Shown here: positions 8,144 to 58,459 of the stretch, one piece after another
How the letters are laid out: every line of letters begins with the position of its first letter
Position numbering within the stretch: position 1 is the first letter of the stretch
From: Candidatus Saccharimonadia bacterium
GTDB taxonomy: Bacteria; Patescibacteriota; Saccharimonadia; UBA4664
Reading direction: 5' to 3'
Length of the DNA: 64,000 bases
NCBI GenBank assembly: GCA_035544015.1
Contig: DATKIP010000010.1
Coordinates: 6,449-70,448 of the forward strand
Notes under the pieces: generated by a model
Seen by the model: only the letters and a program-made list of their open reading frames with translations
Told to the model about the DNA's origin: nothing
The model's database searches: none
Program-made: the position numbers and the translations under genes

Positions 8144-8206
8144 TACGATCAGTGTATAGCATAAGCCAGATATGGCGCAACTCGACTGTTTACGAATGCC
8201 AAGCCA

Positions 8207-10317: not shown

Positions 10318-10348
10318 AGCTTACTCACCCCCGCGGACGAGAAATCAA

Positions 10349-11452: not shown

Positions 11453-11596
11453 CAACCCGCGGTAATGAGCGTATAAAATTTCCCGCTTGGTCATGTGCTT
11501 GATAAATCCTTCATTTATTTTGCTGCGGCCACTATCCAATTCATCATAGCATAAGCACTGTTTCGAGTGTCAATGAACTCGCGTGCGGCAAGCACT

Positions 11597-12373: not shown

Positions 12374-12483
12374 TAAAATCCATCTTGAACCATTTGCCCA
12401 CCACGCGCAATCCGCTCAAGCTCCGATGGAATATCCGAAGCTTGAGCAGTATACTGAAGCTCATAGTAAGCTAGTGAGCCACC

Positions 12484-13431: not shown

Positions 13432-13450
13432 TAATCACGGAAACTCCACC

Positions 13451-14026
13451 ATGCCTCGCGTAGAACCAAATCCCCCCTCTGTCATTCTCGGCAAATACTG
13501 GCCCCTCACCCTCTTGGCCGTCGTGCTTGTACTCGGCGGCATCGGCGCCGTGGTCTACCAAAACCGCACCGGCCACCGCCTCTCCCTCACGCCCACTCCC
13601 AGCGCCCCCGCCGCCACCCCCGCCTCGACTGCCACCCTCTATCTCTTCCCCGCCGCCGGCACCATTACCGCCGGCGGTACGCTCACCATCGAGATCCGCG
13701 AAAACAGCGGCGCCGCTGCCGTAAACGCTGTACAGGCCAACTTCACCTACCCCGCCGATAAGCTCGATTTCGTCAGCGCCGACGCCGCCACCGGCGCCTT
13801 TAGCATTGCGGCCGAATCCACCGGCCAAAACGGCCTGGTCAAGATCGCCCGCGGCACCATCAAACCCGTGAGCTCCGACCATTCAGTCGCCAAAGTCACC
13901 TTCCGCGCCAAAACCACGCCCGGCACCGCCGCTCTGAGCTTCGCCGCCGGCTCGGCCCTCATTTCGACCCCCGGCGCCGCCAACATCCTGGGCACCCCCA
14001 CCGGCGCCACCCTCACCATCAAATAA
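13451..14026 (+). CDS. membrane-anchored protein with cohesin-like beta-sandwich domain (tentative)
   Basis: N-terminal TM WPLTLLAVVLVLGGIGAVVY. LTIEIRENSGAAAVNAVQANFTYPADKLDFVSADAATGAFSIAA...VAKVTFRAKTTPGTAALSF resembles type-I cohesin strand pattern. Confidence 0.4.
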   Translation: MPRVEPNPPSVILGKYWPLTLLAVVLVLGGIGAVVYQNRTGHRLSLTPTPSAPAATPASTATLYLFPAAGTITAGGTLTIEIRENSGAAAVNAVQANFTYPADKLDFVSADAATGAFSIAAESTGQNGLVKIARGTIKPVSSDHSVAKVTFRAKTTPGTAALSFAAGSALISTPGAANILGTPTGATLTIK

Positions 14027-18627: not shown

Positions 18628-21600
18628 CTACCACCTCGTCAGATAAGGTAATGTGATAGTCCCCAACCGCACATCACCTGTGGTGGCCGCCGCCGTCAGG
18701 TGAATCCGGACGATCATATTCGAACCCTGAGTGTACGTACCCGTGATCGCCGGCGTCGTCACGCTGCGCGCCGTCCAAGTGGTACTCACCGTCAGCGCCG
18801 ACGCGTTGTAGTTGGTAGCCACCGTGCCCGCTGTATCGGTAATCGTCACCGACATCGAGCTACCCGCGCTGCCATACGTCCAAAACGTCGGCGAACCCGT
18901 CCAGGCGCTGAAATCATCGGGCACCGGCACCGTCGCCACGATGTCGTAATCTTGAGCCGTACCTTGGCTCGTCACCCATTTGTAGTACCCAAAGCGCTGT
19001 GTCGATTCGTATGCCGCCGTCATCGTCCCCGTATTATTCGAACCATCCGCATCCAGCACCGCTCCCGCAAATTCCCCCGTCAGCCGCACCGCCGAGGCAT
19101 GCCGCGCCGTTCCCGCAAACGTCACCTCCTTGGTAGTCGCATCAAACGTCGCGTTATTGGTGCCGTCTCCCACCCGAATCGTCCCCGCAAACTCACTCGA
19201 CCCGCTCACGTAGAGCGCCGCCGTAGCATTCGCTCCCCCGCTGCCGAGCGTCGGCGTCCCCGTACCAATGCGCACCTTGAAGTTGGCCGTATCCACCTGC
19301 ATCGCATAGCTCGACGACGTCCCGCCCAGATAGGTAGTCCCCGCCGCCGTCACGATGCCGTTGGCCTGCACCCCAAACACATCCGCCGCATTCGCCTGCA
19401 GCCTCAGCAAGTAGTTCGCGCTCACCGTGCTCTTATTAATGAAAATACTCGGGTTCGCACTCGCATCCGCCTGCGCCGTCCCCGGCGCCAGCTGAATGTA
19501 CCCGTTCGCATAATACGCCGCGTACGTCGTGCCGCACGTAGCCGCCAACGTCGAGCACAGCTGGTAGGTGCCGGCCGTACCAGCCGCAAATTGATAAATA
19601 ATATTGCCCGTCGGGTTGGCAAACTGCAAGCTCGTGGTATTCGTACCATTCGACACCGTCAGCGCGCTCGACGTGTTGCCCTGCAAACTCAGCGTGCCCC
19701 CCGCACGACCGATATTCAGCGTGGATGCGTTCGTCGTCCCAATGCTCACCGCCACCGCCGCATTAGCGTCAATGGTGCCCGCCGTATTAAACTGCAAGCT
19801 CGACAGCCCACTCACCGCACCCGCACTCGTAATGCCCCCGGCGTTGTTGTTAATACCGCTGAAAATGCTCGCACCCGCATTCGCCGTCAGCGCCGCCGTG
19901 TTCACCGTGGCCCCCGAGCTAAACGTCGCCGCGTTCGTCACCGTCAGGCTGCTGGCCGTGAGCAAGCCACCCGTCCCTACCGTGCCCGTGAAGCTCGCGG
20001 TGCTCGAAATTGTTTGTCCGTTAATCGTACTCGCCGTCGTCACCGCCCCCGCTGCGTTCACCGAGAATTTGCTCGTTTCCGTCCCGCTCGGACCGCTCCA
20101 CAGATCGATCAAATTGCCGCCCACCGAGGCATTCGTCAGCTTGGCATAAATCAGCGCCTCACCCGCCCCAGCGTTCGCCGCCGCCGTCACCTTGAGCGTG
20201 CTGGCCGTGCCGGTGCCGTTGGCGAGCACAAGCACATTCGAGGCCAGCGAGCCGTTGTTGCTAAATTGATACAGAAACTGTCCCGCCGTCAGATTGGCGC
20301 TCGAGGTCTCGTTGGCCGTCCCCTTGCGCAAATAGCCCGTGCTGCCCGCCCCGCACGAATTCAAGTCCGAGGTACAAATCGTGTACGTCGTGTTGGTCGT
20401 CGGGCTCGCAAACTGGTACGTGCCGGCACCCGCGATGGTCGCAAAATTCACGCTCACCGTATTGGCACCGTTGGTCGCGGTAATCTTGGTACTATTGCCG
20501 CCTTGCAGGGTCAACGTCTGCGTCGTCGATCCCACCGTCATAGCCGCGCTCGGCGTGATCGTGTTGCTCTGCAGCGTCATGCCCTGGGTGATCACCTGGC
20601 TACCGACCGTATCCACCGCAAACTGCGACACCCCACTCGCATTCTGCACATCAAAGGCCGTCGCCGAATCCGTCCCGTTGGCCTTCACGACCACCGATCC
20701 CGTCGTGCCGCTGCCGCCGGTCGCTCCCGCCTGCAGCACCAGGTTGCCGCCGTTGTTGGCTCCCGTGCCGCTCGTGCCGGCCTTAATCGTCAAACTGTTG
20801 CCGGCCCCGCTCGCCGCCGCGGCCACCGACAGCGTCCGCGCCCCGCCCGACGTGAACGTCACATTGGCCGCCGCCAGCCCCACTGTGGTCGCCGCCAGCA
20901 CCACCCCGCCCCCGGCCGCACTGCCGCCCTGCACCGTGGTGATGTTGCCAGCGTTGGCCGCCGTCGAGCCAATCGTCACCACCTGCGCCCCCGTCGCGCT
21001 CGTAGTGTCGGCAATGTGCACGCTTGAGGCCGCCGTCTGCACCCCCACCGCGCCCACATTCACCGCCGTGCCGTTCAGGTTCAAATTGGCCGCCGCGCTC
21101 ACGCCCAAATCCCCCGCCGCCGTGCTCCATGTGGCCGCCGCCGCCGAGGTGATCGTGAGCGCGCCCGAGGTCGTCGTGAGCACCGCCGCCGCATTACTCG
21201 TGATACTCACAGCCCCACCCGACTGCGTAAACGCCCCCTGCACCGTAACGCTCTTGCCACTTGCCACCGTCACATTTTGGTTCAAATTAATCCCGGCGGT
21301 CGCGTTCGTCGTACCGATATTCAGCGTCGTCGTGCCGCTCGGCGTGTCCAGCAGCGGCGTCAGCAGCGATGTATTCGCCCGCCCCGTCCCGCTAATCTGA
21401 TAATTCCCCGTCTGCGTCGTACCCGTGCGGTTCAAAATATAACCCGTACCCGTCGTGCCGTCGCAGTTGCCCGAGTCTGCACACAGCGTCCCGCTCGTAT
21501 CCGGCAGCACCAAGCTCCGCGCACCCGTGGGAGTCGCCGAGGTCAGTGTCAGCTGATTCGTGTTGGTAGCGTCATTAAAAATGAAGCTACTGCTCGCCGC

Positions 21601-24600
21601 CAGCCCCTGCAGCGACACCGCCACCCCACTCGCCGTCGCCGCGTTGCGCCCGATGTTCACGTTCAGCGCGTTCGTTGCCCCGATGTTCACGTTGCCCGCA
21701 AACCCCGAGCCGTTCTTCGACCCAGCGTCGATCGTCACGTTCCCCGAGCTCGCATTCGCCGCCGTCCCGTTGCCCGACCGCAGCGTCACCCCCGCCGAGG
21801 AGCCGCTCGCCACATCCGCCGTCGCAAACAGCGGCGCCACCAAGCTCACCCCCGCCACACCCGTGTTCGAAATATTGAAATTCGAGCTCGCCTGCTGGCT
21901 GGTTTGGTTAATGATGTACGAACCCGCCGACCCTAGCAAAAACCCGCAGTTGGCCGAATTTTGAATACACAGCGTACCGCCCTCATCCGGCAACACCAGC
22001 GCTCGGGTATTCGTCGGCGTCGCAAATGTCAGCGCCGAGGTAAACCCGCCGCCCGTCCCCGTGATCTTCGAGCCGCCGAGTCCCGCCGCCCCCTGTAGCG
22101 TAAAGTTCTGCGTCATGCGGCCGATCGCCACCGAAGTCGCCGTGGCCGAACCAATGCTCAAAGCCCCCGCGCTCGGCGTATCGAGGCTAATCGTCTTCAC
22201 CGCCGTGCTGCCCGTGATCGTCCCCGCAGCGGTCAAGTCGCCACTCCCAGTCACACTGAAGTTGCTGGCCGTGATCAAGTTCGTCCCAAACGTCCCACTA
22301 AAATTAATCCCATTCGTCACGTTGGCACCCTGGATTTTGAGCGCATCCGTCACCGTGATCTGATTGCCCGTCGCCGTATCGTTGTTGGCCAGGTTCAAGA
22401 TCGACGCCACCGTGCTATCGGCCGGCGAGCCACCGTTGGCCGCCACCGCCAGGTTCGCCACCGTTTCGGTGTTGCCCGCCACCGTCGCCGCCTGCACAAA
22501 TTCCAGGTCGAGCCCCGCGATCAAATTCGCGCCGCTCACCGCCGTCGTCGCCTGCGCGTTCGTCGGATTGAGCGAAATCGCACTCCACGCCGTATTGGCC
22601 GCCGTATTATTCGCCGACGTCACCTTAAAAGCCGAGCCAGTCGTCAGCGCATTGGCCGTAATCGTGTGCGCGTCACCCGTCCCCGTAAACGCCTGCGCAA
22701 ACGTGCCGGCGCCGCTCGCCAAGCTCAAATTTTTGCCCGCCGCCACCGTCGTATTCTGGTTGAGGTTAATCGCCGTCGCGTTCGTCGTACCCACCGCCAG
22801 AGCCACGGCCGTCGCCGTATCGAGCAGTGGCGTTTGCAGCGACGTATCGAGCCGGCCCGTCCCCGAAATCCAGAAATTGGCCGAAGTCTGCTGAGCCGCA
22901 TTTTGGTTCAAAATAGCACTCGCGGCCGTCGCCGTACAGCCACTCGCCGTACAAACATTCGTCCCGCCAATTTTGTACGCCGAACCCGAAGCAATATTGG
23001 CGTCTCCGTTCACATCCAGCTTGTAGCTCGGGCTCAGCCCAATACCCACGTTTCCACCCGACAGCGCCGTGATCAGATCGGTCGACCCCGACCGCACTGC
23101 AATATTGCCGCCCGTTGTCTTCAAGTAGCCAGTGGTAGTGGTGCCCTCCCACGAGAAGCCCAAAATGTTGTTCTCGTCGGGGCTAAACAACCCCACCGCC
23201 GGCTGTACTGGCGTCGCCACATAGCTCGAGCCGTTCCACCCCCGCCGGTCAAACACCGAGATCGCCCGCGAATTCGTCGCCGCTCCCGACGGCAACCCAA
23301 ACGCCAGCACCTGCCCCGAACCACCCGGATCATACAACGGAATATTAATCTTCGTATCCACCCCCGACCCCACCGGCGTCGTAAACGTGTCCACGTACGC
23401 ACTGCTCGAACCGCTCAGCCGCAGCGCCCCCTTCACCTCCAGGCCTTCGTGCGCCAGCGTCGGCGCCGTACTCCCGCCCAAGGCAATGCCCACCCGGCTG
23501 TTGGTCGTGTCAACCGTGAACACGTTCGCATTGGTGCCACCCGCCGGCGTCTTGACGCTAAACGCCGCCGTACTCGTAGCCGTCGGCTGCACCACCGTCA
23601 CGCCACCGAGCGACACCGCTCCCGTACCCGTCCCAAACGTCCCGCTACCGCTTTGCAAAAAGTTCCCGCTCGCCTGCGCGTAACCCGTAATCCCGCTCAA
23701 GCCCCCCGCACTCGACACATCAAAGTTGGTCGAATCAATCGCAAGCGGCGCCGCCCCGCCCCCCAACGTAATCGCACCTGTAGCCGCGCCAATGTTTAGA
23801 TTCACCGCCCCCGTCGCGGTCAAACCACCCGTACCCTGAATCAATCCCGTCCCCGAATTCACGCCCACGCCCACCACCGCCCCCGCCTGGCTCACGCTGA
23901 AGTTGCTCGCCGTGATCAAATTCGTCCCAAATGTCCCACTCAAATTAATCCCGTTCGTCACATTCGCACCGTTAATTTTCAGCGCGTCCGTCACCGCAAT
24001 CTGATTCCCCGTCGCCGTGTCATTATTGGCGAGGTTCAAGATCGAACCCACCACGCTATCGGCCGGCGAGCCGCTGTTGGCCGCCACCGCCAAATTCGCT
24101 ACCGTTTCAGTGTTGCCCGCCACCGTCGCGCTCTGCGCAAATTGCACATCGAGCCCGGCGATCGTCCCCCCGCTCACCGCCGTCGTACCCTGGGCATTGG
24201 TCACCGCCAGCGCGACGGCGCTCCACGGCGTGTTGGCCGCCGAATTATTGCTCGATGTCACCCGCAATGCCGCTCCCGTCGTCAGCGAGTTCGCGGTCAA
24301 AGAATCCGCATCCGTGCCCTGCGCATTCGACGACCGCGTCACCGCCCCCGACTGGGCCACCGCAAACCGGCTCGTACCACCCTGCTGCAAATCCACCAAA
24401 TTCCCACTCGGACTACCCGCCTGATTATTCACCTTCAGCAGCGCCGCCCCCGCCCCCGGGTTCGCATTGGCCACAAGGTTGAGCGTCGAGCCCGTGCCTT
24501 GGTTGGTCAGATCAAGCACCCGGTTGCCGCTCGTGCTCGTGTTGGTCAACGCCAGCAGCGCCCCCGTCACGCTCGCACTCGAGGTATCCTGCGCGTTCTT

Positions 24601-25395
24601 GAGCAAATAGCCGGTCGCGCTCGCTGCCTGATACGTCGCGCTGCACGTGGTCGCCACCGTCGTACACAGCGTACCGCCCGCATCCGGAAAACTAATCGCA
24701 TTCGTACCCGTCGGCGTCACAAAACTCACCGTGGTCGTGTTCGCCCCATTCGTCGCCGTAAACACCGAGCTCGCATTGCCCTGAATCGTAAACGACGTAC
24801 TCGTTCGCCCCACCGTCACGCTCGTCGCCGTCCCAGTGCCAATCGACAATGCCGACGCCGTCGCCGTATCCACCAACGGCGCCTGCAGCGAGGTCGCCGC
24901 CTGCACGCTACCCGTCACGTTGAGCGAACCACTCTGCGCCGAGGCCGGGTTCAACTGCGCAAACGCCGAGCTGTCCAGCCCATCCAAAAGATCCGAGTTG
25001 AACGCGTACGGGCTAGCCGTAAATTGAATCCGCGGGCTCATCTCGCCATCAGTATTGAAATTGATTCCGAGGTAAATATTGTCGGTGTTAAAATCTACCG
25101 ATCCCGGCAAGCCCGTCACCGAGCCCAAATTGGTTTGGAAAATCCCATCAGTCACGGTCAAGGTTTTGCTTTCGGTCCAGATCGCCGACCCGCCGGAGCT
25201 CACCGAGTACAACTTAAACACAAACCCGTAGCTCCCGTCGGTCACATTCGTACCGTTCGAATTCACCACCTTGCCCTGAAAGTTGACCTGCTTGTTGATG
25301 CCAGTAGCGGCCACCGCCGGCCCGGCCCACGACGCCATCACCACGCTCACCAGTATCCCAAAAACCCCAGTCGCCGTCAGCGCCCTGGTTACCAT
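18628..25395 (-). CDS. giant secreted fibrous surface protein (about 2250 aa), paralogous N-terminal module to the 1928-6145 protein, internally duplicated, no anchor
   Basis: Signal MVTRALTATGVFGILVSVVMASWAGPAVA then mature ATGINKQVNFQGKVVNSNGTNVTDGSYGFVFKLYS. The long segment NTETVANLAVAAN...TNLITASNFSV occurs twice. ATG at 25393-25395; the ORF-track start 25473 is an upstream extension. Confidence 0.8.
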   Translation of the reverse strand: MVTRALTATGVFGILVSVVMASWAGPAVAATGINKQVNFQGKVVNSNGTNVTDGSYGFVFKLYSVSSGGSAIWTESKTLTVTDGIFQTNLGSVTGLPGSVDFNTDNIYLGINFNTDGEMSPRIQFTASPYAFNSDLLDGLDSSAFAQLNPASAQSGSLNVTGSVQAATSLQAPLVDTATASALSIGTGTATSVTVGRTSTSFTIQGNASSVFTATNGANTTTVSFVTPTGTNAISFPDAGGTLCTTVATTCSATYQAASATGYLLKNAQDTSSASVTGALLALTNTSTSGNRVLDLTNQGTGSTLNLVANANPGAGAALLKVNNQAGSPSGNLVDLQQGGTSRFAVAQSGAVTRSSNAQGTDADSLTANSLTTGAALRVTSSNNSAANTPWSAVALAVTNAQGTTAVSGGTIAGLDVQFAQSATVAGNTETVANLAVAANSGSPADSVVGSILNLANNDTATGNQIAVTDALKINGANVTNGINLSGTFGTNLITASNFSVSQAGAVVGVGVNSGTGLIQGTGGLTATGAVNLNIGAATGAITLGGGAAPLAIDSTNFDVSSAGGLSGITGYAQASGNFLQSGSGTFGTGTGAVSLGGVTVVQPTATSTAAFSVKTPAGGTNANVFTVDTTNSRVGIALGGSTAPTLAHEGLEVKGALRLSGSSSAYVDTFTTPVGSGVDTKINIPLYDPGGSGQVLAFGLPSGAATNSRAISVFDRRGWNGSSYVATPVQPAVGLFSPDENNILGFSWEGTTTTGYLKTTGGNIAVRSGSTDLITALSGGNVGIGLSPSYKLDVNGDANIASGSAYKIGGTNVCTASGCTATAASAILNQNAAQQTSANFWISGTGRLDTSLQTPLLDTATAVALAVGTTNATAINLNQNTTVAAGKNLSLASGAGTFAQAFTGTGDAHTITANALTTGSAFKVTSANNTAANTAWSAISLNPTNAQATTAVSGANLIAGLDLEFVQAATVAGNTETVANLAVAANGGSPADSTVASILNLANNDTATGNQITVTDALKIQGANVTNGINFSGTFGTNLITASNFSVTGSGDLTAAGTITGSTAVKTISLDTPSAGALSIGSATATSVAIGRMTQNFTLQGAAGLGGSKITGTGGGFTSALTFATPTNTRALVLPDEGGTLCIQNSANCGFLLGSAGSYIINQTSQQASSNFNISNTGVAGVSLVAPLFATADVASGSSAGVTLRSGNGTAANASSGNVTIDAGSKNGSGFAGNVNIGATNALNVNIGRNAATASGVAVSLQGLAASSSFIFNDATNTNQLTLTSATPTGARSLVLPDTSGTLCADSGNCDGTTGTGYILNRTGTTQTGNYQISGTGRANTSLLTPLLDTPSGTTTLNIGTTNATAGINLNQNVTVASGKSVTVQGAFTQSGGAVSITSNAAAVLTTTSGALTITSAAAATWSTAAGDLGVSAAANLNLNGTAVNVGAVGVQTAASSVHIADTTSATGAQVVTIGSTAANAGNITTVQGGSAAGGGVVLAATTVGLAAANVTFTSGGARTLSVAAAASGAGNSLTIKAGTSGTGANNGGNLVLQAGATGGSGTTGSVVVKANGTDSATAFDVQNASGVSQFAVDTVGSQVITQGMTLQSNTITPSAAMTVGSTTQTLTLQGGNSTKITATNGANTVSVNFATIAGAGTYQFASPTTNTTYTICTSDLNSCGAGSTGYLRKGTANETSSANLTAGQFLYQFSNNGSLASNVLVLANGTGTASTLKVTAAANAGAGEALIYAKLTNASVGGNLIDLWSGPSGTETSKFSVNAAGAVTTASTINGQTISSTASFTGTVGTGGLLTASSLTVTNAATFSSGATVNTAALTANAGASIFSGINNNAGGITSAGAVSGLSSLQFNTAGTIDANAAVAVSIGTTNASTLNIGRAGGTLSLQGNTSSALTVSNGTNTTSLQFANPTGNIIYQFAAGTAGTYQLCSTLAATCGTTYAAYYANGYIQLAPGTAQADASANPSIFINKSTVSANYLLRLQANAADVFGVQANGIVTAAGTTYLGGTSSSYAMQVDTANFKVRIGTGTPTLGSGGANATAALYVSGSSEFAGTIRVGDGTNNATFDATTKEVTFAGTARHASAVRLTGEFAGAVLDADGSNNTGTMTAAYESTQRFGYYKWVTSQGTAQDYDIVATVPVPDDFSAWTGSPTFWTYGSAGSSMSVTITDTAGTVATNYNASALTVSTTWTARSVTTPAITGTYTQGSNMIVRIHLTAAATTGDVRLGTITLPYLTRW
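22250..22650. repeat. intragenic direct repeat, copy 2 (about 85-90% identical to 23891-24295)
   Basis: gtcacactgaagttgctggccgtgatcaagttcgtccc... aligns with ctcacgctgaagttgctcgccgtgatcaaattcgtccc... 1641 nt away. Antisense ORFs 22364-22894 and 24017-24424 translate to near-identical peptides. Confidence 0.7.
23891..24295. repeat. intragenic direct repeat, copy 1
   Basis: See copy 2; the offset of 1641 nt equals 547 codons, matching the duplicated protein segment. Confidence 0.7.
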
Positions 25396-25483
25396 GCGTC
25401 GGCTGTTTCCACCCGTTACCCGAAATCTTCGACTCGTTGCGAGACGACTGGGTACGCGCACACCTTCACACAATTACTCCCTA

Positions 25484-25634: not shown

Positions 25635-26579
25635 TTATCGGCGGTGACGCGGCCGCACCCACAACCACCACGCCAACCCGCCCACCGCCGCGAGCGCCAG
25701 CAACCCCACCATCCACACCACTATGGCTCCCGCATACCAAAAACCGGTCACCAACGTCTTGGTAGCCTCCGTGCCGTCGTACCGGTATGTAGTTGTCAGC
25801 GAATACCGTCCCGGCAACCACGCCACCTTCGTGCCCAGCAAACCGACCCGATAGCGCCGAAAACTTTCGGGCAAAATTACTCCCGACGCCTCGTTGATAG
25901 CCGCTCGCTCCACCACCCGCCCCACCGGGTCCTTCACCTCCACCACCCCGCGCGGCACCACATGCACGTTGCCGCCGTTTTGAAACCGCAGCTCCACCCG
26001 ACCCGGCAACCGCACCCACCCCGCCGCGCTCGTCTGCGACGCCAAGCGCAAATCAACCTGCTGGCCACCATCCTTCACCGCCAACACCAAGCTCGAAAGT
26101 ACCTGCTTCACTCCCACCTGCTGACTCGCCGGCTGCCCGGCGTCATCCACCGCCGTCGCCAACACCGCCCCATAATGGCCGCCCGGCGCTAGCGTAGCGC
26201 GGTTATCAATCGTTACCAACACCTCCATCGTCGCCCCTGCCGACACAAACACCGCATTCTTCTCGAGCACCATCCACGACGCCAACCCATACTTGTGCAC
26301 GAGCTCGCTCGCCGGCGTGCCCAAAAACGCCACCCCACCTTGCTCGTCGAGCGCCCCAAAGTCCACCACGCTCAACCGAAAATTCTGATCGGTCGGGTTG
26401 CGATTCGTTAACTTCAGCGCATACTGCACACTCGGCTTATCCGCCGGCACCACCACCTGCGCAAACGCCGGTGATACCACAAGACCCGTCCCGCCCGTCG
26501 CCGCGCTCGCCCATCCTGGCCAAAAACCGCTCACCAAAGCAAAAATAATCCCAGCGCACCACGCTCTCCCCCGCCGCAT
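25635..26579 (-). CDS. DUF916/DUF3324-like (CscA-like) surface protein with C-terminal TM anchor
   Basis: Start at MRRGRAWCAGIIFALVSGFWPGWASA signal (ATG 26577-26579). FQNGGNVHVVPRG. C-terminal GFWYAGAIVVWMVGLLALAAVGGLAWWLWVRPRHRR. Confidence 0.55.
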   Translation of the reverse strand: MRRGRAWCAGIIFALVSGFWPGWASAATGGTGLVVSPAFAQVVVPADKPSVQYALKLTNRNPTDQNFRLSVVDFGALDEQGGVAFLGTPASELVHKYGLASWMVLEKNAVFVSAGATMEVLVTIDNRATLAPGGHYGAVLATAVDDAGQPASQQVGVKQVLSSLVLAVKDGGQQVDLRLASQTSAAGWVRLPGRVELRFQNGGNVHVVPRGVVEVKDPVGRVVERAAINEASGVILPESFRRYRVGLLGTKVAWLPGRYSLTTTYRYDGTEATKTLVTGFWYAGAIVVWMVGLLALAAVGGLAWWLWVRPRHRR

Positions 26580-26587
26580 CTCGATAC

Positions 26588-27652
26588 CTACCTTCGGCGC
26601 CGGCCGAGCCGCCGCGCCCCGCGCAAAGTCCCCCGCACCACCGAGTACACTCCAAAGCCCACGATCGCCAACACCACCGCCAGCACCGCCAAGAACCGCC
26701 ATGGAATCACCCAAAACGACACGTCGGCCTCAATCGGCACATCGCGCTTACCATCGTCATACACCGCAAACAAATGCCCCGTATACCGCCCAATCCGCAG
26801 CTTCGTCAGCTGCGTCCAGTCCCACTTGAGTTTTTGGACATGATTGCCGTTCTTGTCCAGCTTCACCTTACCGTCTTCCACCACATCCTCGTACACCGGA
26901 AAACCCTCGGTCCACTCCGATGGATAAACCCGGTTCGATCCCGGCAAAATATTCCCAAACGCACTATTGATCGGCACCACCCCTAGCTGCTTGTTCCCGC
27001 GCATAATGAAAACATCACCATGCGGCACTACGTGCACGTTGCCCGTATTCTTAAACGCTACCTTAAAATCCGCCGGCAAAAACTCATAAATCCGGTGCAT
27101 CGAGGTAAACGAAGCCAGGCCCAGCGTACGTTTCGCATTCGGCGAGCGCGCGTCGAGCAGCACCAACGTAGCCGCCGCCCCCGCCACCGAGTTGGTGCGT
27201 TCGCCTCGCTTCACATCGTCCCCCACGCGCGAAAACGCCACCGCATAGTAATACCCAAACGCCGCCGTTTTCGGCACGTTGATCGTCATTTTCACCGTCT
27301 GCCACACGTTCGCCGGAGCATCAAACTGCGTCTTATCAAACTTTACCCAATCAAAATAATCATCCCCCGGTTGCCGGTCCATCAGCTCCGGTTTGCCCTC
27401 CTCGCCATACGCGCGAAACTTCATGAGCGACACCTTGAGCCGCGCATCACTGCCACTATTTTGTTTTACCCGCAAATCGGCCGACACGCTCTTGCCCGGA
27501 TCCGCCTCCAGATTGATCGGCAGCGGCGAGACCTGCAGCACGAGCGCTCCCGTGCCGGGCGCCGGCGCATCCGCCGCACTCGCCACCGCCGGCGCCAGCC
27601 CCCAAGCCAATGCTAGCGCCACCCCCATTATCCGCACAATCACTCGCTTCAT
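26588..27652 (-). CDS. DUF916/DUF3324-like (CscA-like) surface protein with C-terminal TM anchor
   Basis: Signal MKRVIVRIMGVALALAWGLAPAVASA (ATG 27650-27652). FKNTGNVHVVPHG. C-terminal FWVIPWRFLAVLAVVLAIVGFGVYSVVRGTLRGARRLGRRRR. Confidence 0.55.
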   Translation of the reverse strand: MKRVIVRIMGVALALAWGLAPAVASAADAPAPGTGALVLQVSPLPINLEADPGKSVSADLRVKQNSGSDARLKVSLMKFRAYGEEGKPELMDRQPGDDYFDWVKFDKTQFDAPANVWQTVKMTINVPKTAAFGYYYAVAFSRVGDDVKRGERTNSVAGAAATLVLLDARSPNAKRTLGLASFTSMHRIYEFLPADFKVAFKNTGNVHVVPHGDVFIMRGNKQLGVVPINSAFGNILPGSNRVYPSEWTEGFPVYEDVVEDGKVKLDKNGNHVQKLKWDWTQLTKLRIGRYTGHLFAVYDDGKRDVPIEADVSFWVIPWRFLAVLAVVLAIVGFGVYSVVRGTLRGARRLGRRRR

Positions 27653-27665
27653 CTCAAGACCCAGG

Positions 27666-28724
27666 TTAAAAATTACCGGCGCCCACCACCGTAATCGTGT
27701 CAGTATAATCATTACCCGCCGGCGTTGCCGCCGAAATCGTCGCTCGCTCGATCAGCGAAATCACATCCCCGTTGGCCGTCCCGCCGGTGCACGCAGCAAT
27801 CGGCTGATAGGTGGTGCTAAGCGTACCACCTTGAGCCGTTGTAGCGCCATTATATTCCGCATCAACCGCCAGCGTGCAGCCGCCGCTCGCATCGGTCGTC
27901 AAATCCGTATCGAGCACGTAGCCTTCGGCCCCGCCGTTGATCGTCGACGGCGCACCATTCACCGTGCCGGCCGTCGGGATCGTATAGGTCGTCGAAGCCG
28001 AATGCAGCCCCCCAAACTGATCCTTCGCCCACGCGATCCAGCCGCCCTTGGCGTTCGTGGTCACGGTCGCCGTCACCCCGTTCGTCGATACAATGCCGCC
28101 GGACCCCACCGTCGGGTCAAGGTTGCCCGTAAACGTATCCGCGTACCCGCTGAGCGTCAAAATAAACGACGGCGGCACTACAGCCGTCACCACGATCGAG
28201 TCATCGGTGTTATTCGCCAAAGCCACATACGTAAAGTCCACCACCACGCTACCCGAAGTCTGCGTCTGAATATTCGCCTGCTGGCTATTGGCCGCCGCGG
28301 ACGCCGTCGTGAGCGTACTCGTGCCGGAAAAATTAAAACAATACTGCGTGCCTACTGTGAGGTCGCTCGAAGGAAATGTCGCTGCTTTGGTACCGTTATC
28401 CGCATTCGAAGCCGTCGTAATGCCCGGCCAAGCCGTTGCCGTAGCCGGAATATTGGTTGTAGTCACCGTCCAGTTGGCCGCCGTAGTGTTGAGCGTATAT
28501 GTCGAAGGAAACGTCACGATAACCTTAGCCTCTGTTCCCACCGTGGCGGGCGTGGCGCAAACCATCCCCCCCGTCGCCGTGTTGACCTTCATGCGATCGA
28601 GCCGCACAAAGGCCTGCTGAAATGCCCCCTCGGCCGTTGCCGGGAGGAGCTGTCCCACCACACTGAGCATCAACGCTACAGCCGAAACTACTCTCAAAGA
28701 CGGGCGCCGACTCCAGCGGTGCAT
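27666..28724 (-). CDS. secreted WxL-like surface protein paralog
   Basis: Signal. GMVCATPATVG. C-terminus NDYTDTITVVGAGNF. Confidence 0.5.
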   Translation of the reverse strand: MHRWSRRPSLRVVSAVALMLSVVGQLLPATAEGAFQQAFVRLDRMKVNTATGGMVCATPATVGTEAKVIVTFPSTYTLNTTAANWTVTTTNIPATATAWPGITTASNADNGTKAATFPSSDLTVGTQYCFNFSGTSTLTTASAAANSQQANIQTQTSGSVVVDFTYVALANNTDDSIVVTAVVPPSFILTLSGYADTFTGNLDPTVGSGGIVSTNGVTATVTTNAKGGWIAWAKDQFGGLHSASTTYTIPTAGTVNGAPSTINGGAEGYVLDTDLTTDASGGCTLAVDAEYNGATTAQGGTLSTTYQPIAACTGGTANGDVISLIERATISAATPAGNDYTDTITVVGAGNF

Positions 28725-28832
28725 TCAAACTCCATCAACACTACTTGCTCAGTAGTGTATCCGAAGCATAAGAAGCATGCAACTGCCTATCGGTCTGTGA
28801 GGCCGAAAGACCCGCGCTTCATTACCTTCCTC

Positions 28833-29972
28833 TTAAAAGTTACCCGCGCCCACCACCGTGATCACATCCGTGTAGTCTGATCCGGCCGGCGTACCGCCGC
28901 GGATTACCGCGCGCTCGTAGAGGGTCAGTACATCGCCGTCCGAGGTGGCCGGCGCGGCGCCGCCACAGCTGGCGATCGGGCGATAGCTCGTATTGCTCAG
29001 CACACCGCCGCCGTTACCGCTCGCACTGTTGAAGGCGGCATCGATCCCGTAGGGAGTAGTAAACCCACAGCCACCCGTCGCATCGGTCGTCAGATCCACG
29101 TCCATCACGTATCCCTCGCGTCCCACACCACCGCCACTCGCTACCAGGTCGAAGGCGGCGTCACCCGTCACGTGCAGCTGAGTCGGGTAGGGGTTCTTCA
29201 GGCCAGAATCAATCGTGTAGTTGGCCGCCGCCGAGTGCAAGCCCGCGTACTGATCCTTCACCCAAGCAATCCAGCCGCCCACCGCGTTGGTCGTGACGGT
29301 CGCGGTCACACCCGCCGTCGACACAATATTGGTAGGATCAAGGTTGGTCGTAAACGCATCCGTGAAGGCACTTAGCGCGATCGTGAAGTTCGGCGGCACT
29401 ACCGCGCTCACCACGATACTGTCGTCGGTTGTCACCGTGTAGGCCCAGTTGGTCTGGTTGACGGGCAGCGGCGTACCCGCGTTGTCGTATGTCACCAGCG
29501 TGGCACCAGTGATGCTCACCGAAGTCGTCGCCGAACCGTTCGTCAGCCGCGCCGCCGTGTGAAAGCAGTACTGCGTGGCCGCGGTCAAGTCGCCCGAAGG
29601 AAATCGCACCGTGTGGCCGCTCACGGTCGTCGCCGTCCCGATGCTAGGCCACGCCGTAGCTCCCGCCGGCAAGTCGCTCGTATCCACCGTCCAGTTCGAA
29701 GCCGTCGAGTTGACCACGAAGTCCGTCGCCCCACCGTCAGTCGGGAAGGTCACGTCCACCAACGTCTCTGTCGCACTCGTCGAAGCCGCCGACGGGGTAG
29801 CACACACCATCACGCCCGTAGCCGTCAGCGCCTTATGACGATCCGGCCGCACAAACGCCTGCGTAAACTGCGGCGGAGCCGCCTGGGCAACTCCCGAAAA
29901 AGCCGGCACCCATAACTCTGCTACGAGAGCGGCGACGGCGGCGACGATAAGTCTGATTTTTGGTTTGTTCAT
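28833..29972 (-). CDS. secreted WxL-like surface protein paralog
   Basis: MNKPKIRLIVAAVAALVAELWVPAFSGVAQA signal. VMVCATPSAAST. C-terminus SDYTDVITVVGAGNF. Confidence 0.5.
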   Translation of the reverse strand: MNKPKIRLIVAAVAALVAELWVPAFSGVAQAAPPQFTQAFVRPDRHKALTATGVMVCATPSAASTSATETLVDVTFPTDGGATDFVVNSTASNWTVDTSDLPAGATAWPSIGTATTVSGHTVRFPSGDLTAATQYCFHTAARLTNGSATTSVSITGATLVTYDNAGTPLPVNQTNWAYTVTTDDSIVVSAVVPPNFTIALSAFTDAFTTNLDPTNIVSTAGVTATVTTNAVGGWIAWVKDQYAGLHSAAANYTIDSGLKNPYPTQLHVTGDAAFDLVASGGGVGREGYVMDVDLTTDATGGCGFTTPYGIDAAFNSASGNGGGVLSNTSYRPIASCGGAAPATSDGDVLTLYERAVIRGGTPAGSDYTDVITVVGAGNF

Positions 29973-30064
29973 TTGTTTAACTTTATTTTCGCCACCACAG
30001 TGATTGGGTGGTTCGAGAGACTTTTAAGGACTTTTTAAGAATCTGCTCCCAGCTTATCGGAAAC

Positions 30065-30110
30065 CGCTTATGCCTGTCAACTCTTTTTTACAACAGTTGA
30101 CAAGCATAAG
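30065..30110. repeat. 17-bp inverted repeat (1 mismatch) with 12-nt T-rich loop between two WxL-like genes
   Basis: gcttatgcctgtcaact cttttttacaac agttgacaagcataagc. Each arm contains TTGACA/TGTCAA. Confidence 0.6.
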
Positions 30111-30122
30111 CCCAGTCCCTGG

Positions 30123-31175
30123 CTAAAAACTCGCCGACGCCACCGCCGTCAGCACCTCTGCGTAATCTCCCGACGCCGGTGTCAGCGGTTTGGTTTTGGC
30201 CTTCAAAATAAACGACCCGCGACCACCCACCAGCGGCGCCGGCGCCGAAAAAATCTCGCGGATCAACGCATCGGCGGTGCCCACATTCGCCGCCGACCCG
30301 TTATACGGCGCGGTCAGCGCCAGCGGACCGCCCGAACTCTGCGTCGCCGACACCCCCTGCGCCCCGAAGCCCTCCGCCACCGCGCTCAGATCCGCCGTCG
30401 CCGCCCCAATCGTGTAAGCCGCCTGCGTACTTTTGAGCCCAGCATTCTGCCCACTCAGATACACCTTGCCCCCCGATTCGCCGTTCGTATCCAAGCTCAC
30501 CCACACCCGCTTGGCCGAATCCGTCACCGTGCTCACGAGCAAGCTCCCAAAGTCGATCTGATACGGCGGGCTCGTGCTCGTATCCGTCGTAGCCACGTCA
30601 ATGTCAAACGCCAGCTGCGGATCCACCGTCGCCGCACTCGTCGTCGGTCCATACCCGCTCTCGGTGAATTTACCTCGATACGCCTTGGCCTTCACCGTGT
30701 ACACCGTACTCCGCGCCAGCCCTCGCACCATCACCCCCGCACCCGAACCCCAGGCCGCGTACGTTTGGTAATCACCAAAGCTCAGCGACGAGCCGATGGT
30801 CAAATCGCTCTTTATATAGCGTGTATCCGCCACAAAATTATCAGTCGAAATCGCCACCGCAAACACCGCGTCACTCGGATTGTTCGCCGGGCCAATCAGC
30901 ACTTTGAGCTTGTTGTACCAGTTGTCATCATTACTAATCGTCACCGTCGGCACATTGGCCTGCTTCTCGTGCGCCTCGCCCGCTCCCGCCTTGTAGTTGG
31001 CCGACGAGGCCGACCCCGCCACCTCGCCCGCCGCGCCGTTAATCCGGTAATTGGCGGAGCTCGAATTCGCCGTCCCGCCATTGCCGAAGCCGTACGAATT
31101 CAATTCATAATTTCCGCTCGCTGGCAGCCCCGCTATCATCCAGCCGGCCAACCACACCCCCAGCCACTTGCCCAT
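30123..31175 (-). CDS. secreted WxL-like surface protein paralog (ATG at MGKWLGVWLAGWMIAGLPASG; the ORF track begins 4 codons upstream at a GTG)
   Basis: C-terminus GDYAEVLTAVASASF. Start ATG overlaps the upstream TGA (TGATG). Confidence 0.5.
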   Translation of the reverse strand: MGKWLGVWLAGWMIAGLPASGNYELNSYGFGNGGTANSSSANYRINGAAGEVAGSASSANYKAGAGEAHEKQANVPTVTISNDDNWYNKLKVLIGPANNPSDAVFAVAISTDNFVADTRYIKSDLTIGSSLSFGDYQTYAAWGSGAGVMVRGLARSTVYTVKAKAYRGKFTESGYGPTTSAATVDPQLAFDIDVATTDTSTSPPYQIDFGSLLVSTVTDSAKRVWVSLDTNGESGGKVYLSGQNAGLKSTQAAYTIGAATADLSAVAEGFGAQGVSATQSSGGPLALTAPYNGSAANVGTADALIREIFSAPAPLVGGRGSFILKAKTKPLTPASGDYAEVLTAVASASF

Positions 31176-31906
31176 CACTGCTTCCACCGCAAGCTACCTT
31201 TAATAAGCGCCATAATCGCCGAAATATCGTCGTGCGGATCAGTGCTAGTGATCGAAATTGTCAGGTTTTTGCCTCCATGAGGCCAAAATAACGTCTGCTC
31301 GTGGCCATCGGTTTTGGTCATGAACTTCACGGTCTCGCCACCCACCACCTCGGCACTCGCCCGGTAATCCGCCGCATGGATTTCGCGCACCCGCCAGCTC
31401 GCATCGTCCGCTAGCTGGCCGCTCGGCAACGGCCGCACCTCCACCGCCACCCGATGCCTGTAATTCGTTTTGGAACCTATCGTATACTGCTCGAGCACTT
31501 GCGCGTCACTTTTGGACTGCGACACCTGGTCAAACATACCCGGATACGTAAACGAAATAATGAGTCCCGCCAGCACATTCGTGTCTGCGGGTGTAGCCGT
31601 CGGCGCCGCTTCAGTTTGCACCTGCCCCAACACCTTGGCCTGCGCCTCCACCGGCCCGTCCACCAGCCGCATCACGCCCACGACCACGCCGCCCGCCAGC
31701 GCCCCGACCACCACGAGCGACGACAGCCACGCCGCCATATGCGCCCGGCCTCGCCGCCGCGGGCGCTCCGCCTCGCCGGGCTCACGGCCGTCTCCAGCCA
31801 CTTCGGCCACCACCTCCTGCGGCGACACCCCGTGGAGCTGCGCCGCATGCCGCACCGTCCGCCGCAGCTCCTCGTCATTCACGCTCGGGCCTCCTAACAA
31901 AACCAT
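31175..31906 (-). CDS. hypothetical single-pass membrane protein (cytoplasmic Arg/Glu-rich N-terminus, TM, extracytoplasmic domain)
   Basis: AHMAAWLSSLVVVGALAGGVVVGV TM. G/T wobble typical of - strand genes. Start codon lies inside the 18-bp inverted repeat. Confidence 0.5.
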   Translation of the reverse strand: MVLLGGPSVNDEELRRTVRHAAQLHGVSPQEVVAEVAGDGREPGEAERPRRRGRAHMAAWLSSLVVVGALAGGVVVGVMRLVDGPVEAQAKVLGQVQTEAAPTATPADTNVLAGLIISFTYPGMFDQVSQSKSDAQVLEQYTIGSKTNYRHRVAVEVRPLPSGQLADDASWRVREIHAADYRASAEVVGGETVKFMTKTDGHEQTLFWPHGGKNLTISITSTDPHDDISAIMALIKGSLRWKQ

Positions 31907-32019
31907 CTGGCAGATGCAGCGCTAGGAGAAAGCGAAGCCCGGAACGAGGCGTAGTCAGATCTACGGTGAGTGAGGACTGGAGGTTTCGACGCCGCGATGG
32001 GCTGCCAGATGGTTTTGTT
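31896..32019. repeat. perfect 18-bp inverted repeat (aacaaaaccatctggcag / ctgccagatggttttgtt) flanking an 88-nt loop; the 3' arm on the mRNA strand contains the start codon of 31175-31906
   Basis: Arms at 31896-31913 and 32002-32019 are exact reverse complements. Confidence 0.8.
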
Positions 32020-32020
32020 C

Positions 32021-32983
32021 TCATGCCAGCGCCGCCAATCGCTTCTCCATGATCCGCTTCTCGCGCCGCTCACCGAGCCAAAACGAGACGATCATCAGCA
32101 GCAGCACAATCCACAGCGGCCAAATAATCAGCAAATTCGTCGCCACCGGCACCGTCGCCGCCTTATTTCCCGCCCCCGCTGTCGCCGCGTTCACAATCGT
32201 CGTCAGTTGCAAGTACGCCGTATGCCCCACCGCATCCGTCGCCCGAATAATCAGCGGAAACGAGCCCAAATACCCCGTCCCCACTTTCCGATACGTATGC
32301 TTCACCGTAAACGGCCCCGGCGCCAGCCGCGTTATCAAATCCGACGTCCCGTCACCCCAATCCACGCTCACCGCATACGGCGCCTGGCCGCCCACGATCT
32401 CCACCGGCCAGGTAATTTCCGCCCCCGGCTCGCTGCCGCGGTAGAAGTTCACCGACTGCAAAATCAACTCCGTCGAAAACCCATACCCGCCCGGCGGCTG
32501 ATTGAGCGTCACGGTCACCGTCGGCGAGGTCGGACCCTCCTGATCGAGCGTGTTGTACGGCAGTGCCGTCAAATCATTTCTACCCACCACCAGATCCACC
32601 GGCACCTTAAAGTGCCCACTCGCGTCGCAAATCACACTGCCCACCAAAATACCGTTCGTAAACACCTTAATGAGCGCTTTGTCCGGGCACGTACCCTCCA
32701 CCGTCACCGGGTTGGTCCCAAATGTCTGGCCACTCGACGGTGAGGTAATCACCGCCGGCTTCGCCGGCCGCGGCCCCGGCACCACCGCCGTCACCCCATA
32801 CGACGCACTACACGTCGTCGACGGCGACGGATCACAACTATCCGCCCGTACCGACCATGTAAATCCAGCCAGCAGCAACCCCACGCCGATCGTCAAAAAC
32901 AGCAACAGCGCATACGACGTATCCCGGTGGTGCGCAAGCCACCCGGTGTGCGAATAATGACTATACCTCGGGATCACAAGCAT
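32021..32983 (-). CDS. PKD-domain bitopic membrane protein, paralog of 6237-7169
   Basis: VSVDWGDGTSD...HTYRKVGTGY...IIRATDAVGHTA. C-terminal LLLMIVSFWLGERREKRIMEKR. Confidence 0.75.
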   Translation of the reverse strand: MLVIPRYSHYSHTGWLAHHRDTSYALLLFLTIGVGLLLAGFTWSVRADSCDPSPSTTCSASYGVTAVVPGPRPAKPAVITSPSSGQTFGTNPVTVEGTCPDKALIKVFTNGILVGSVICDASGHFKVPVDLVVGRNDLTALPYNTLDQEGPTSPTVTVTLNQPPGGYGFSTELILQSVNFYRGSEPGAEITWPVEIVGGQAPYAVSVDWGDGTSDLITRLAPGPFTVKHTYRKVGTGYLGSFPLIIRATDAVGHTAYLQLTTIVNAATAGAGNKAATVPVATNLLIIWPLWIVLLLMIVSFWLGERREKRIMEKRLAALA

Positions 32984-33011
32984 TATCTCGATTTTACCAT
33001 AACCAGATTGG

Positions 33012-37582: not shown

Positions 37583-37918
37583 ATGCTCGTGCACATTTCC
37601 GACACCGAATGCATACTGAGCCGGATCGCCGAAGGCTCTGAGCGGCAGCCCCGGGTCACACTCACCCCCTGGGGAGCCCCCTTCGAAGACACCACCCTCA
37701 CACCCTTCGCCACCGGCACCATGGGTTGCCAGGGAGCCTACGTGCTCGTCGGCCTCACCCGCCGAGGCCTCCTGCGCTTCTGCTTCGCACCCTGCTCGTT
37801 CGGCCCATGGCGGCCCGAGCTGGAGTTCGGCCCCGACCGGCAGTCGTACCGGCAGGCAGCCCAACAGCTGAAGCTGATGACCCGCTTCGGCGACCTCCGC
37901 CAGACCGTCAGCGCCTAG
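37583..37918 (+). CDS. small hypothetical protein (about 110 aa) with atypical codon usage; start more likely GTG at 37589
   Basis: Consensus promoter plus AGGAGG plus ORF plus hairpin. ctg/aag-rich codons unlike native + strand genes. Confidence 0.45.
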   Translation: MLVHISDTECILSRIAEGSERQPRVTLTPWGAPFEDTTLTPFATGTMGCQGAYVLVGLTRRGLLRFCFAPCSFGPWRPELEFGPDRQSYRQAAQQLKLMTRFGDLRQTVSA

Positions 37919-37927
37919 CCCGCCACC

Positions 37928-37966
37928 GCGGCTCCTTATCCCTCCACCGAGCGGACAAGGAGCCGC
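37928..37966. terminator. 10-bp perfect hairpin (gcggctcctt ... aaggagccgc, 19-nt loop) between convergent 37583-37918 and ileS
   Basis: Arms read directly; weak T-run on the + side. Confidence 0.45.
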
Positions 37967-41191: not shown

Positions 41192-42196
41192 ATGAAGACA
41201 ATCAGCAATAAGGAACTAAAAGAAATAATCCAAAGCGGCCATATTAACCTCCTACTAGGATCTGGGTGCTCGCGCGATTACCTTGCAACTCTCCAGGACA
41301 TCGAAGAAAGGATGAATAATGAGGCCACAAAGGAAGCTGCGCAAAAAGACTACTACAAACTGATCCTTAAATCCAAAGCAGTCCTTGATGAAACTTTAGA
41401 AACCAGTCCAACCGAGAAAAGAAAATTACTAAAGACACGACAAAACTACGACTCGTTCCTCGGCTTTTGGGTCGACACAGTCGCCAAAAGGTCACTACAT
41501 ATCGTCAATAAACAAATAAATATATTTACGACCAACTTTGACATGTTCATTGAAGCATCCTGCGAGAGGCTTAATATTCCATACAACGATGGCTTCGCAG
41601 GTCAAATCAACCCTGTTTTTAGCGTATCTAACTTCAATAAAATTCAAAAATACAAAAGCCTACAGTTTGATAACACTTCAGATATTCCCCTGTTCAACAT
41701 CATTAAGTTACACGGCTCGCTATCATGGCAAGCAAAAGACGAAGTGATCACCTATTCAAACGGACAACACATCGAGAACGGCCTGGACACCAAAACAGGC
41801 ACCGATTTTGATGAAGGCTACAAGCAAATCGCAGTTATTAATCCGAATGCTGAAAAGCATTTCGAAACGGTGCTTAACAGAAGCTACGCATCAATGCTGC
41901 GTAAGTTCACATTAGAGCTTGAAAAAGAAAACAGCGTATTACTAATTGCCGGATTCTCGCTGTCGGATAAACACATAAAAGACCTCCTATACGGGGTCAT
42001 GAAGTCAAACCCCACTCTTGTGGTCATCTATTTCGCGCATTCCCCATATAACGAGGCATCAGACAAGCTTAACGAAAAAAAGAACCCCAACCTGTATATA
42101 ATCTCTCCGGAAACCGAATTCTCGCTCGAGGAGATTACTGCCTATATTTCAAAAATTTTCAACGACAAACCTGAGGTTCACGAGGATGGCGAATAA
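41192..42196 (+). CDS. SIR2-like (SIR2_2 family) NADase-type defence protein; partner of HerA
   Basis: INLLLGSGCS Rossmann start, FTTNFDMFIE (TTNYD-like) and KLHGS motifs. AT-rich. 11-nt overlap with the downstream gene. Confidence 0.8.
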   Translation: MKTISNKELKEIIQSGHINLLLGSGCSRDYLATLQDIEERMNNEATKEAAQKDYYKLILKSKAVLDETLETSPTEKRKLLKTRQNYDSFLGFWVDTVAKRSLHIVNKQINIFTTNFDMFIEASCERLNIPYNDGFAGQINPVFSVSNFNKIQKYKSLQFDNTSDIPLFNIIKLHGSLSWQAKDEVITYSNGQHIENGLDTKTGTDFDEGYKQIAVINPNAEKHFETVLNRSYASMLRKFTLELEKENSVLLIAGFSLSDKHIKDLLYGVMKSNPTLVVIYFAHSPYNEASDKLNEKKNPNLYIISPETEFSLEEITAYISKIFNDKPEVHEDGE

Positions 42197-44075: not shown

Positions 44076-44122
44076 ACCAGCCACCCGATCCATCACCGAC
44101 GGCTTAAAACACAGCATATAAC

Positions 44123-45397: not shown

Positions 45398-45455
45398 TAT
45401 ACGTCTCTGACGAACCAACCGTTACATTGCCAAATGAACCAAAAAGCTGTCCAGC

Positions 45456-58381: not shown

Positions 58382-58459
58382 CCCGCCCGGGCTAGCGCCG
58401 CCGAGGCGACGATGGCCACCGAGCCAGCGTGTGGGCATCGTGCCCGCCTAGCCCGCCAT

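Follow-up and report, generated by a model that had tools for sequence, protein, structure and literature searches.

A perfect hairpin inserted into a stop/start overlap of a Saccharimonadia envelope-protein operon: a possible orphan relic of a MITE-like element

Miniature inverted-repeat transposable elements (MITEs) inserted in operons appear to be the closest known counterparts of the sequence described here, and among them the Correia elements of Neisseria (CREE, Correia repeat enclosed elements, or NEMIS, neisserial miniature insertion sequences) seem to be the best analogue. Correia elements combine inverted repeats with a conserved core, can bind RNase III and be cleaved or protected by it, and can supply expression signals to neighboring genes (PMC2649163). 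Our subject is a perfect 18-bp inverted repeat with an 88-nt spacer in Candidatus Saccharimonadia bacterium (assembly GCA_035544015.1, contig DATKIP010000010.1, positions 6,449 to 70,448; this whole stretch of 64,000 nucleotides is what we call the window). The repeat lies between a gene for an immunoglobulin (Ig)-like/PKD membrane protein and a gene for a single-pass membrane protein, both on the minus strand, as are nearly all genes of the window. By way of background, Correia elements are present in many copies per genome, and the repetitive extragenic palindromic (REP) sequences are imperfect palindromes of ~35 bp with short loops, found in hundreds of copies and linked to the RAYT (REP-associated tyrosine) transposases. 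Judging from alignments with related loci, the repeat of the window belongs to a lineage-specific insertion into an ancestral ATGA stop/start overlap; for this insertion we think an origin from a small non-autonomous, MITE-like element the most likely one, though our confidence in that origin goes about halfway and no further.

The repeat had been picked out in an earlier note made from the letters of the window, and its arms and spacing were confirmed: on the plus strand, AACAAAACCATCTGGCAG (31896–31913) and CTGCCAGATGGTTTTGTT (32002–32019) are exact reverse complements of 18 bp, lie 88 nt apart and span 124 nt from arm to arm. The 18-bp repeat is not a chance match. With up to three mismatches tolerated, the 18-mer AACAAAACCATCTGGCAG matches nothing further in the 64-kb window, and dinucleotide-preserving shuffles produced no match either (0/100); no second inverted repeat of 16 bp or longer in the 64 kb has its arms within 400 nt of each other, and in 20 mononucleotide shuffles inverted 18-mer pairs were absent and 16-mer pairs averaged 0.1. 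A sensitive inverted-repeat search of the window revealed no family of similar elements. The repeat can be extended to 31 nt at 81% complementarity (31883–31913 with 32002–32032); the extension is weak, as the added 13 positions pair at 7/13 and its left part falls in conserved coding sequence. Two positional remarks in the note are also literally true: the AUG of the longest downstream open reading frame (ORF) lies within the 3′ arm, and the 5′ arm follows right after the upstream stop, a single G separating the TGA from the arm.

Given a defined repeat between two genes, the question of whether it belongs to the ancestral operon could be addressed by comparison with related loci. A protein search with the downstream protein returned, besides the identical entry from this genome, only five clusters of homologues at 45–58% amino-acid identity, which are thus distant relatives; eight contigs carry the related loci (L048, L049, L050 and L131–L135). 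In 8/8 of these, the Ig/PKD gene shares 4 nt (ATGA) with the membrane gene, which suggests that their translation may be coupled. Alignment with MAFFT against five distinct homologous loci leaves one clean gap of 139–142 nt, and the element is absent from the relatives. At the empty sites the junction in L131 reads GGCGGCGCTGGCATGA followed at once by ACGAC, and in L048 and L134 it reads GGCATGA followed at once by TGAACGAC. The corresponding order in the window is GGCGGCGCTGGCATGA, then G, one arm, 88 nt, the other arm and AGGAGGCCCGAGCG, and then TGAATGACGAG; the 3′ end of the upstream gene, GGCGGCGCTGGCATGA, is itself conserved in the relatives. Since a single clean gap is found in all relatives, we take the element to be a lineage-specific insertion into the ancestral ATGA stop/start overlap. 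The parts of the locus are as follows, in the order of the mRNA.

32021 to 32983, minus strand: upstream gene, a 320-aa Ig-like/PKD membrane protein (Pfam Glucodextran_B, Big_6/Big_7), with its stop TGA at 32021–32023
31882 to 32020, minus strand: lineage-specific insertion of 139 nt (142 nt if one copy of TGA is counted as a target-site duplication), between GGCATGA and TGAATGACGAG
32002 to 32019, minus strand: 5′ arm on the mRNA (right arm on the plus strand), AACAAAACCAUCUGGCAG, predicted paired probability 0.95–1.00, starting 2 nt past the upstream stop
31914 to 32001, no strand assigned: spacer or loop of 88 nt, non-coding, without significant structure of its own
31950 to 31965, no strand assigned: central palindrome CGTAG-TCAGAT-CTACG, at the exact midpoint of the spacer (36 + 16 + 36 nt), as read from the sequence
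31896 to 31913, minus strand: 3′ arm on the mRNA, CUGCCAGAUGGUUUUGUU, containing a non-functional ATG at 31904–31906
31890 to 31895, minus strand: Shine-Dalgarno sequence AGGAGG, touching the stem base, 7 nt before the GTG and within the inserted DNA
31175 to 31882, minus strand: downstream gene, a 235-aa single-pass membrane protein, with the start GTG at 31880–31882

The longest downstream ORF (31175–31906; one transmembrane helix, without a Pfam family) has its first ATG at 31904–31906, inside the 3′ arm, and the earlier note had taken this ATG as the gene start, naming a Met further downstream, at MAAWLSS, as the alternative. Neither position held up. We place the start at GTG 31882, because the NCBI product (P0001, HVQ43384.1, a hypothetical protein of a Candidatus Saccharimonadia metagenome-assembled genome) is 235 aa long, starts at that GTG and is 100% identical, and is eight residues shorter than the longest ORF. 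The form in JGI/IMG (P0007) has 243 aa and begins at the ATG in the hairpin arm. The N-termini of the homologues favor the NCBI start over this longer one: 4/5 clusters begin with MND or MMND or at the aligned position, the remaining one (P0005) is N-terminally shorter in the alignment, and no homologue has anything that corresponds to the eight extra residues MVLLGGPS, for which the 3′ arm and the ribosome-binding site code. The signals for initiation agree with this placement. On the mRNA the order is CUGCCAGAUGGUUUUGUU-AGGAGG-CCCGAGC-GUG-AAU-GAC, and few other genes of the window have a ribosome-binding match as strong as the AGGAGG before GTG 31882, a comparable case being the AGGAGG-N8-GTG of a Band 7 gene; the ATG in the arm has no AGGAGG-like site before it and is 100% paired in the predicted fold. 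The main practical value of the analysis lies here, in a gene start corrected to GTG 31882 (235 aa) against the 243-aa JGI/IMG call.

Folding of the minus-strand mRNA, over 281 nt for the paired probabilities and also over 161 nt, bore out the stem that the note had proposed for checking: in the 281-nt fold the 18-bp stem has a predicted pairing probability of ~1.0 (0.95–1.00 per base), and its duplex comes to −29.5 kcal/mol. For the 161-nt fold, z is −2.75 on the minus strand and −3.2 on the plus strand, scores that are due to the arms alone; the 88-nt spacer by itself is not significantly different from its shuffles (z = −0.85 on the minus strand, −0.64 on the plus strand). The 161-nt fold also shows a further, imperfect outer helix, which is unstable in the longer context. 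The central palindrome forms the tip of the minimum free energy structures, and the rest of the spacer is not palindromic (~25% match in a hand comparison). As to the initiation signals, the AGGAGG is mostly free in the prediction, with a mean paired probability of 0.19, and the GUG start codon has a mean of 0.53.

These predictions bear on the possibility that the element is a cis-regulatory RNA switch, in which the stem would block initiation until a ligand, a protein or upstream translation opened it, with the 88-nt loop as the sensor. The extreme stability of the stem and its place between a stop and a start would suit a switch; in some folds the last codons of the upstream gene pair with the spacer and the GUG through a weak outer helix, the GUG having a paired probability of 0.53, and if the upstream arm is kept unpaired in the model, as it would be under a terminating ribosome, the prediction has the ribosome-binding site pair instead with a CUCCU of the loop. 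Yet the true start, GTG 31882, lies outside the perfect stem, as does the mostly free ribosome-binding site, so that the occluded initiation foreseen in the note is not what the fold predicts. Its suggestion of a ligand- or protein-binding loop fared no better: the loop is no more structured than shuffled sequence, Rfam gave no match in the whole window at the gathering score and none in 31700–32200 at E values up to 10, and absence of the element from 8/8 homologous loci shows that it is not a conserved regulator of the operon. We consider a switch decidedly improbable, and a riboswitch or leader RNA was rejected on these same observations. Hammerhead or other ribozymes, a retron, translational bypass and a small toxin ORF were dropped as well, the defining features of each being absent.

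Having set the switch aside, we return to the insertion and its origin. Its features point to a relic of a small non-autonomous, MITE-like transposable element, an orphan known from one copy, a proposal to which we give about as much credence as doubt. MITE-like origin is thought most likely because of the perfect 18-bp terminal inverted repeats, the 88-nt non-coding core and the lack of coding bias. Three features by which MITEs are recognized are present, namely terminal inverted repeats, small size with no coding capacity, and an empty site in related genomes; multiple copies, the defining property, were not seen either in the 64-kb window, the part of this genome that the search covered, or among the genomes, metagenomes, viral contigs, plasmids and phages searched. 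The miniature inverted-repeat insertion that the earlier note had offered as its alternative is the best fit to the comparative data, but none of the collections searched contains a second copy.

The coding capacity of the insertion was assessed on a single frame that runs through it.

31875 to 32024, minus strand: 49-codon ORF through the whole insertion, starting at the ancestral ATGA and stopping at a TGA overlapping GTGAATGA

Its GC content at third codon positions is 0.48, compared with 0.70–0.76 in the real genes; used as a protein query, the 49-aa sequence found no homologue, and the exact sequence is missing from the protein collection. It is probably not a gene, though it could be translated in passing.

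Searches for further copies were made at several levels. The exact 18-mer occurs at 47 loci in 185,579 representative genomes, at 79 in JGI metagenome contigs and at 1 in IMG/VR viral contigs, against a rough chance expectation of ~17, by our own estimate, for the genome collection alone. Each match outside the window is to one arm only and lies in sequence that is unrelated and in many cases AT-rich; at the locus L112 an AT-rich duplication contains the 18-mer twice, in direct orientation. When the element was compared by BLAST with all of the loci retrieved, no second arm appeared, and the spacer gave only 12-nt chance matches. A gapped two-arm pattern had one match in the viral contigs, an 11-bp chance repeat in phage sequence (L136) with dissimilar flanks and loop, and a 21-mer from the center of the spacer had none there; blastn of the element against plasmids and phages was likewise negative. 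Within the window there is no further copy of the AGGAGGCCCGAGCGTGA junction and no similarity to the spacer elsewhere.

Several observations weigh against a transposable origin. No second arm pair or core was found in the window or in the representative genome, metagenome, viral, plasmid and phage collections, and none of the ~40 ORFs of the window that were scanned with Pfam encodes a transposase, recombinase, integrase or invertase. The arms are asymmetric within the insert, which extends 1 nt beyond the left arm and 14 nt beyond the right one, and only a 2-bp AG directly flanks both arms. TGA, or GC(A/G)TGA, is present on both sides of the insert, which is compatible with a target-site duplication, one that would have regenerated both the stop and the start; the case is ambiguous, for L048 and L134 have ATGATGA at the junction without any insert, so that the flanking copies of TGA need not have arisen by duplication of the target. 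Finally, the perfection of the arms is uninformative, since it would fit a recent insertion and, equally, selection for the stem.

The same observations lend themselves to an origin without transposition, by a one-off event such as the capture of foreign DNA during repair or a template switch in replication, of which the inverted repeat would be a by-product with neither mobility nor function. The finding of one copy only in all the searches, the asymmetric arms with an ambiguous target-site duplication and the failure to find a transposase nearby speak for such an event. Against it, the window contains no donor sequence, and a local template switch would not easily produce two perfect 18-bp arms of which the empty sites show no trace; a short non-coding core between terminal inverted repeats is, besides, the hallmark of non-autonomous transposons. 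We regard this one-off origin as unlikely, though well short of negligible.

Two further explanations can be weighed on the evidence already given. In an inverton, the 18-bp repeats would be recombination sites, and flipping of the 88-bp segment would alter expression of the downstream gene; the locus does offer a short segment bounded by perfect inverted repeats, and recombination at them would prevent the arms from diverging. No promoter-like site was found in the segment, or anywhere in 31000–33000, on either strand, no recombinase is among the ~40 ORFs scanned, the element is absent from relatives, and 88 bp would be very short for the synapsis of two sites; an inverton was accordingly among the candidates rejected, and we hold it to be very improbable. 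Least probable of all, to our minds scarcely credible, is an artefact of assembly. The source is a metagenome-assembled genome, which is the ground for raising the point, but the element lies in the middle of a contig of 103.5 kb (103,508 bp) and a repeat of 18 bp should be below the k-mers usual in assembly. The JGI/IMG data (longest contig 525,175 bp) moreover contain P0007, which reads into the right arm, and P0008, which reaches up to the left arm; P0008 is the upstream protein, identical to NCBI HVQ43385.1 and present in both NCBI and JGI/IMG; HVQ43384.1 and HVQ43385.1 have the locus tags VMT30_00235/00240.

The history of the locus may be pictured as follows. The starting point is the conserved envelope-protein operon seen in the relatives, with the Ig/PKD gene and the membrane gene overlapping by ATGA, and in this genome ~140 nt of foreign DNA lies exactly in that overlap. 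Both genes are intact after the insertion, and the left TGA still ends the upstream gene. At the other end, the right junction supplies AGGAGG, a 7-nt spacer and GTG, so that the downstream gene has a ribosome-binding site of its own. The insertion was tolerated, we suggest, because both genes stayed intact and the downstream gene owns this site.

The fold may add to the tolerance of the insertion. In the model the insert forms a very stable hairpin that would loop itself out of the mRNA, and at the base of the stem the upstream stop is 1 nt away on one side, with the new ribosome-binding site directly against the other. The hairpin therefore brings the two signals together in the predicted structure and probably does not hide the start codon. 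A ribosome ending at the UGA, 2 nt before the stem, would land beside AGGAGG-N7-GUG; given the footprint of a ribosome on mRNA, a terminating ribosome would pull apart the outer third of the stem, which is rich in A and U. Translation of the downstream gene could then go on from an independent or a re-coupled start.

Whether or not the DNA came from a mobile element, the hairpin could by now act on the transcript as a barrier to 3′ exonucleases or stabilizer, as an RNase III site or as a weak terminator, and any such effect would uncouple expression of the first two genes of the operon from the rest. Carried further, this becomes an explanation in its own right, that the hairpin is a selected RNA element of the operon (mRNA stabilizer, RNase III site or partial terminator) which sets the ratio of gene products, its origin being secondary. 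REP hairpins in operons of Escherichia coli stabilize the upstream part of the mRNA. The perfect 18-bp stem is lengthened by an imperfect helix in the fold, and the absence of mismatches between the arms would agree with selection for the stem. The 3′ arm, after a GC-rich core of 11 bp, closes with UUUUGUU, and the 5′ arm opens with the complementary A-rich run, an arrangement that resembles a bidirectional terminator; the hairpins after the genes for isoleucyl-tRNA synthetase (IleRS) and histidyl-tRNA synthetase (HisRS) in this window are plain stems of 13–14 bp without U tracts. The Correia elements, with their reported RNase III binding and cleavage or protection (PMC2649163), offer a precedent. 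However, the loops of canonical intrinsic terminators are far shorter than 88 nt, the site went unreported in the terminator scan, and the hairpin is not conserved in relatives. Selection on such an element is in our judgment possible but doubtful, a little less so than the one-off origin; it is compatible with a MITE-like origin and does not exclude it.

A bolder form of the transposon hypothesis is that the insertion represents a new family of hairpin-forming mobile elements in Saccharimonadia, members of the candidate phyla radiation (CPR), which would target ATGA overlaps, bring a ribosome-binding site of their own and, by folding themselves away and setting the upstream stop beside the new start, let operon expression and translational coupling survive. 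We think this improbable. If the mobile reading is true in its modest form, the locus would exemplify MITE-like DNA in the reduced genome of a CPR bacterium, and it would show how an insertion in a stop/start overlap can be tolerated, with the stop kept, a new ribosome-binding site and start provided and the insert folded away. The locus also carries a caution, that a perfect hairpin beside a start codon need not be a regulatory switch. The element is ordinary in kind and opens no new biological question.

The surroundings of the operon are conserved in part. In the longer related contigs L21 is followed by a divergent ~370-aa gene, a ~175-aa gene that L048 has but that was not called in L050, and then the Ig/PKD and membrane genes; after the membrane gene the relatives have a row of paralogous genes of 350–380 aa. 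The window has at this place (25635–31187, minus strand) a tandem row of genes of ~350–380 aa with no Pfam match, and a signal-peptide-like N-terminus in the one that was read; the row is syntenic in related Saccharimonadia contigs (L048, 4153–6505; L050, 6182–11750). It is followed in the window by giant ORFs of 2281 aa (18628–25473, no Pfam match) and 1528 aa (14040–18626, Kelch repeats), and together these look like a large cell-surface gene cluster. A second Ig/PKD protein of 310 aa is encoded at 6237–7169 on the minus strand (PKD, PKD_4, Glucodextran_B), with an architecture like that of the gene upstream of the hairpin; its gene stands in another cluster without Pfam matches (7169–13882) and adjoins an ORF of 1405 aa.

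The hairpins downstream of IleRS and HisRS (37912–37966 and 58445–58488, minus strand) are perfect or near-perfect, with stems of 13–14 bp and no U tracts, and the exact 14-mer TGGCGGGCTAGGCG occurs within 2–3 nt after both. With up to two mismatches, TGGCGGGCTAGGCG has 6 matches in the window, two of them exact, against 1.55 expected; hairpin and 14-mer may be a shared terminator or promoter module. At 41192–45418 the GC content falls to 0.39–0.50, compared with ~0.61 elsewhere. This islet contains a SIR2_2-domain gene (41192–42196, plus strand) overlapping a HerA/DUF87 helicase gene (42186–44075, plus strand), a pair that resembles anti-phage systems of the SIR2-HerA type, as well as a Schlafen AlbA_2 gene (44123–45418, minus strand), and it looks like a horizontally acquired defense islet in a Saccharimonadia genome. 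GC skew on the plus strand is negative in every 2-kb bin of the window (−0.06 to −0.34), and a scan of the 64 kb for tRNA and tmRNA found neither.

As to known systems, some share single features with the insertion and were rejected. Integron attC sites are imperfect palindromes of ~60–140 bp that end in ...AAC / GTT..., and the right end of the insert, GTTAGGA, matches 6/7 of the GTTRRRY core by eye; but the stem is perfect, without the unpaired central spacer or extrahelical bases, the left core RYYYAAC is unmatched, Pfam found no integrase among the ~40 ORFs scanned, there is no cassette array, and the site is inside a conserved operon. An intrinsic terminator has the stem and the UUUUGUU tail in its favor and was rejected for the loop and the silent scan noted above.

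Closer in arrangement is structure-dependent translational coupling, in which, as here, a single helix has at its base the stop codon of the first gene together with the ribosome-binding site and start codon of the second, and to which the weak outer helix joining the end of the first gene to the GUG region may be likened. Here, however, the ribosome-binding site is predicted to be accessible without unwinding, the outer helix is not robust, and the structure is not conserved. The REP sequences and bacterial interspersed mosaic elements (BIME) of enterobacteria differ from the insert, which has one stem of 18 bp closing a loop of 88 nt and is without a family; what they would share with it is a stable intercistronic stem-loop that could shield the upstream mRNA from 3′ exonucleases and so lead to differential expression.

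The Correia elements remain the nearest comparison. A full-text literature search for miniature inverted-repeat elements together with Saccharibacteria found no paper. There is no sequence similarity between the Correia elements and the insert, which is known as one copy only, is without a TA duplication and has arms that do not lie at the exact ends of the inserted DNA; no integration host factor (IHF) site or promoter was identified in it, and its host is a member of the Saccharimonadia within the CPR. In form and setting the two are nonetheless alike: both are ~100–160 bp long with terminal inverted repeats around a non-coding core, both lie between co-transcribed genes, and the transcript of each folds, in our case by prediction, into a long hairpin.

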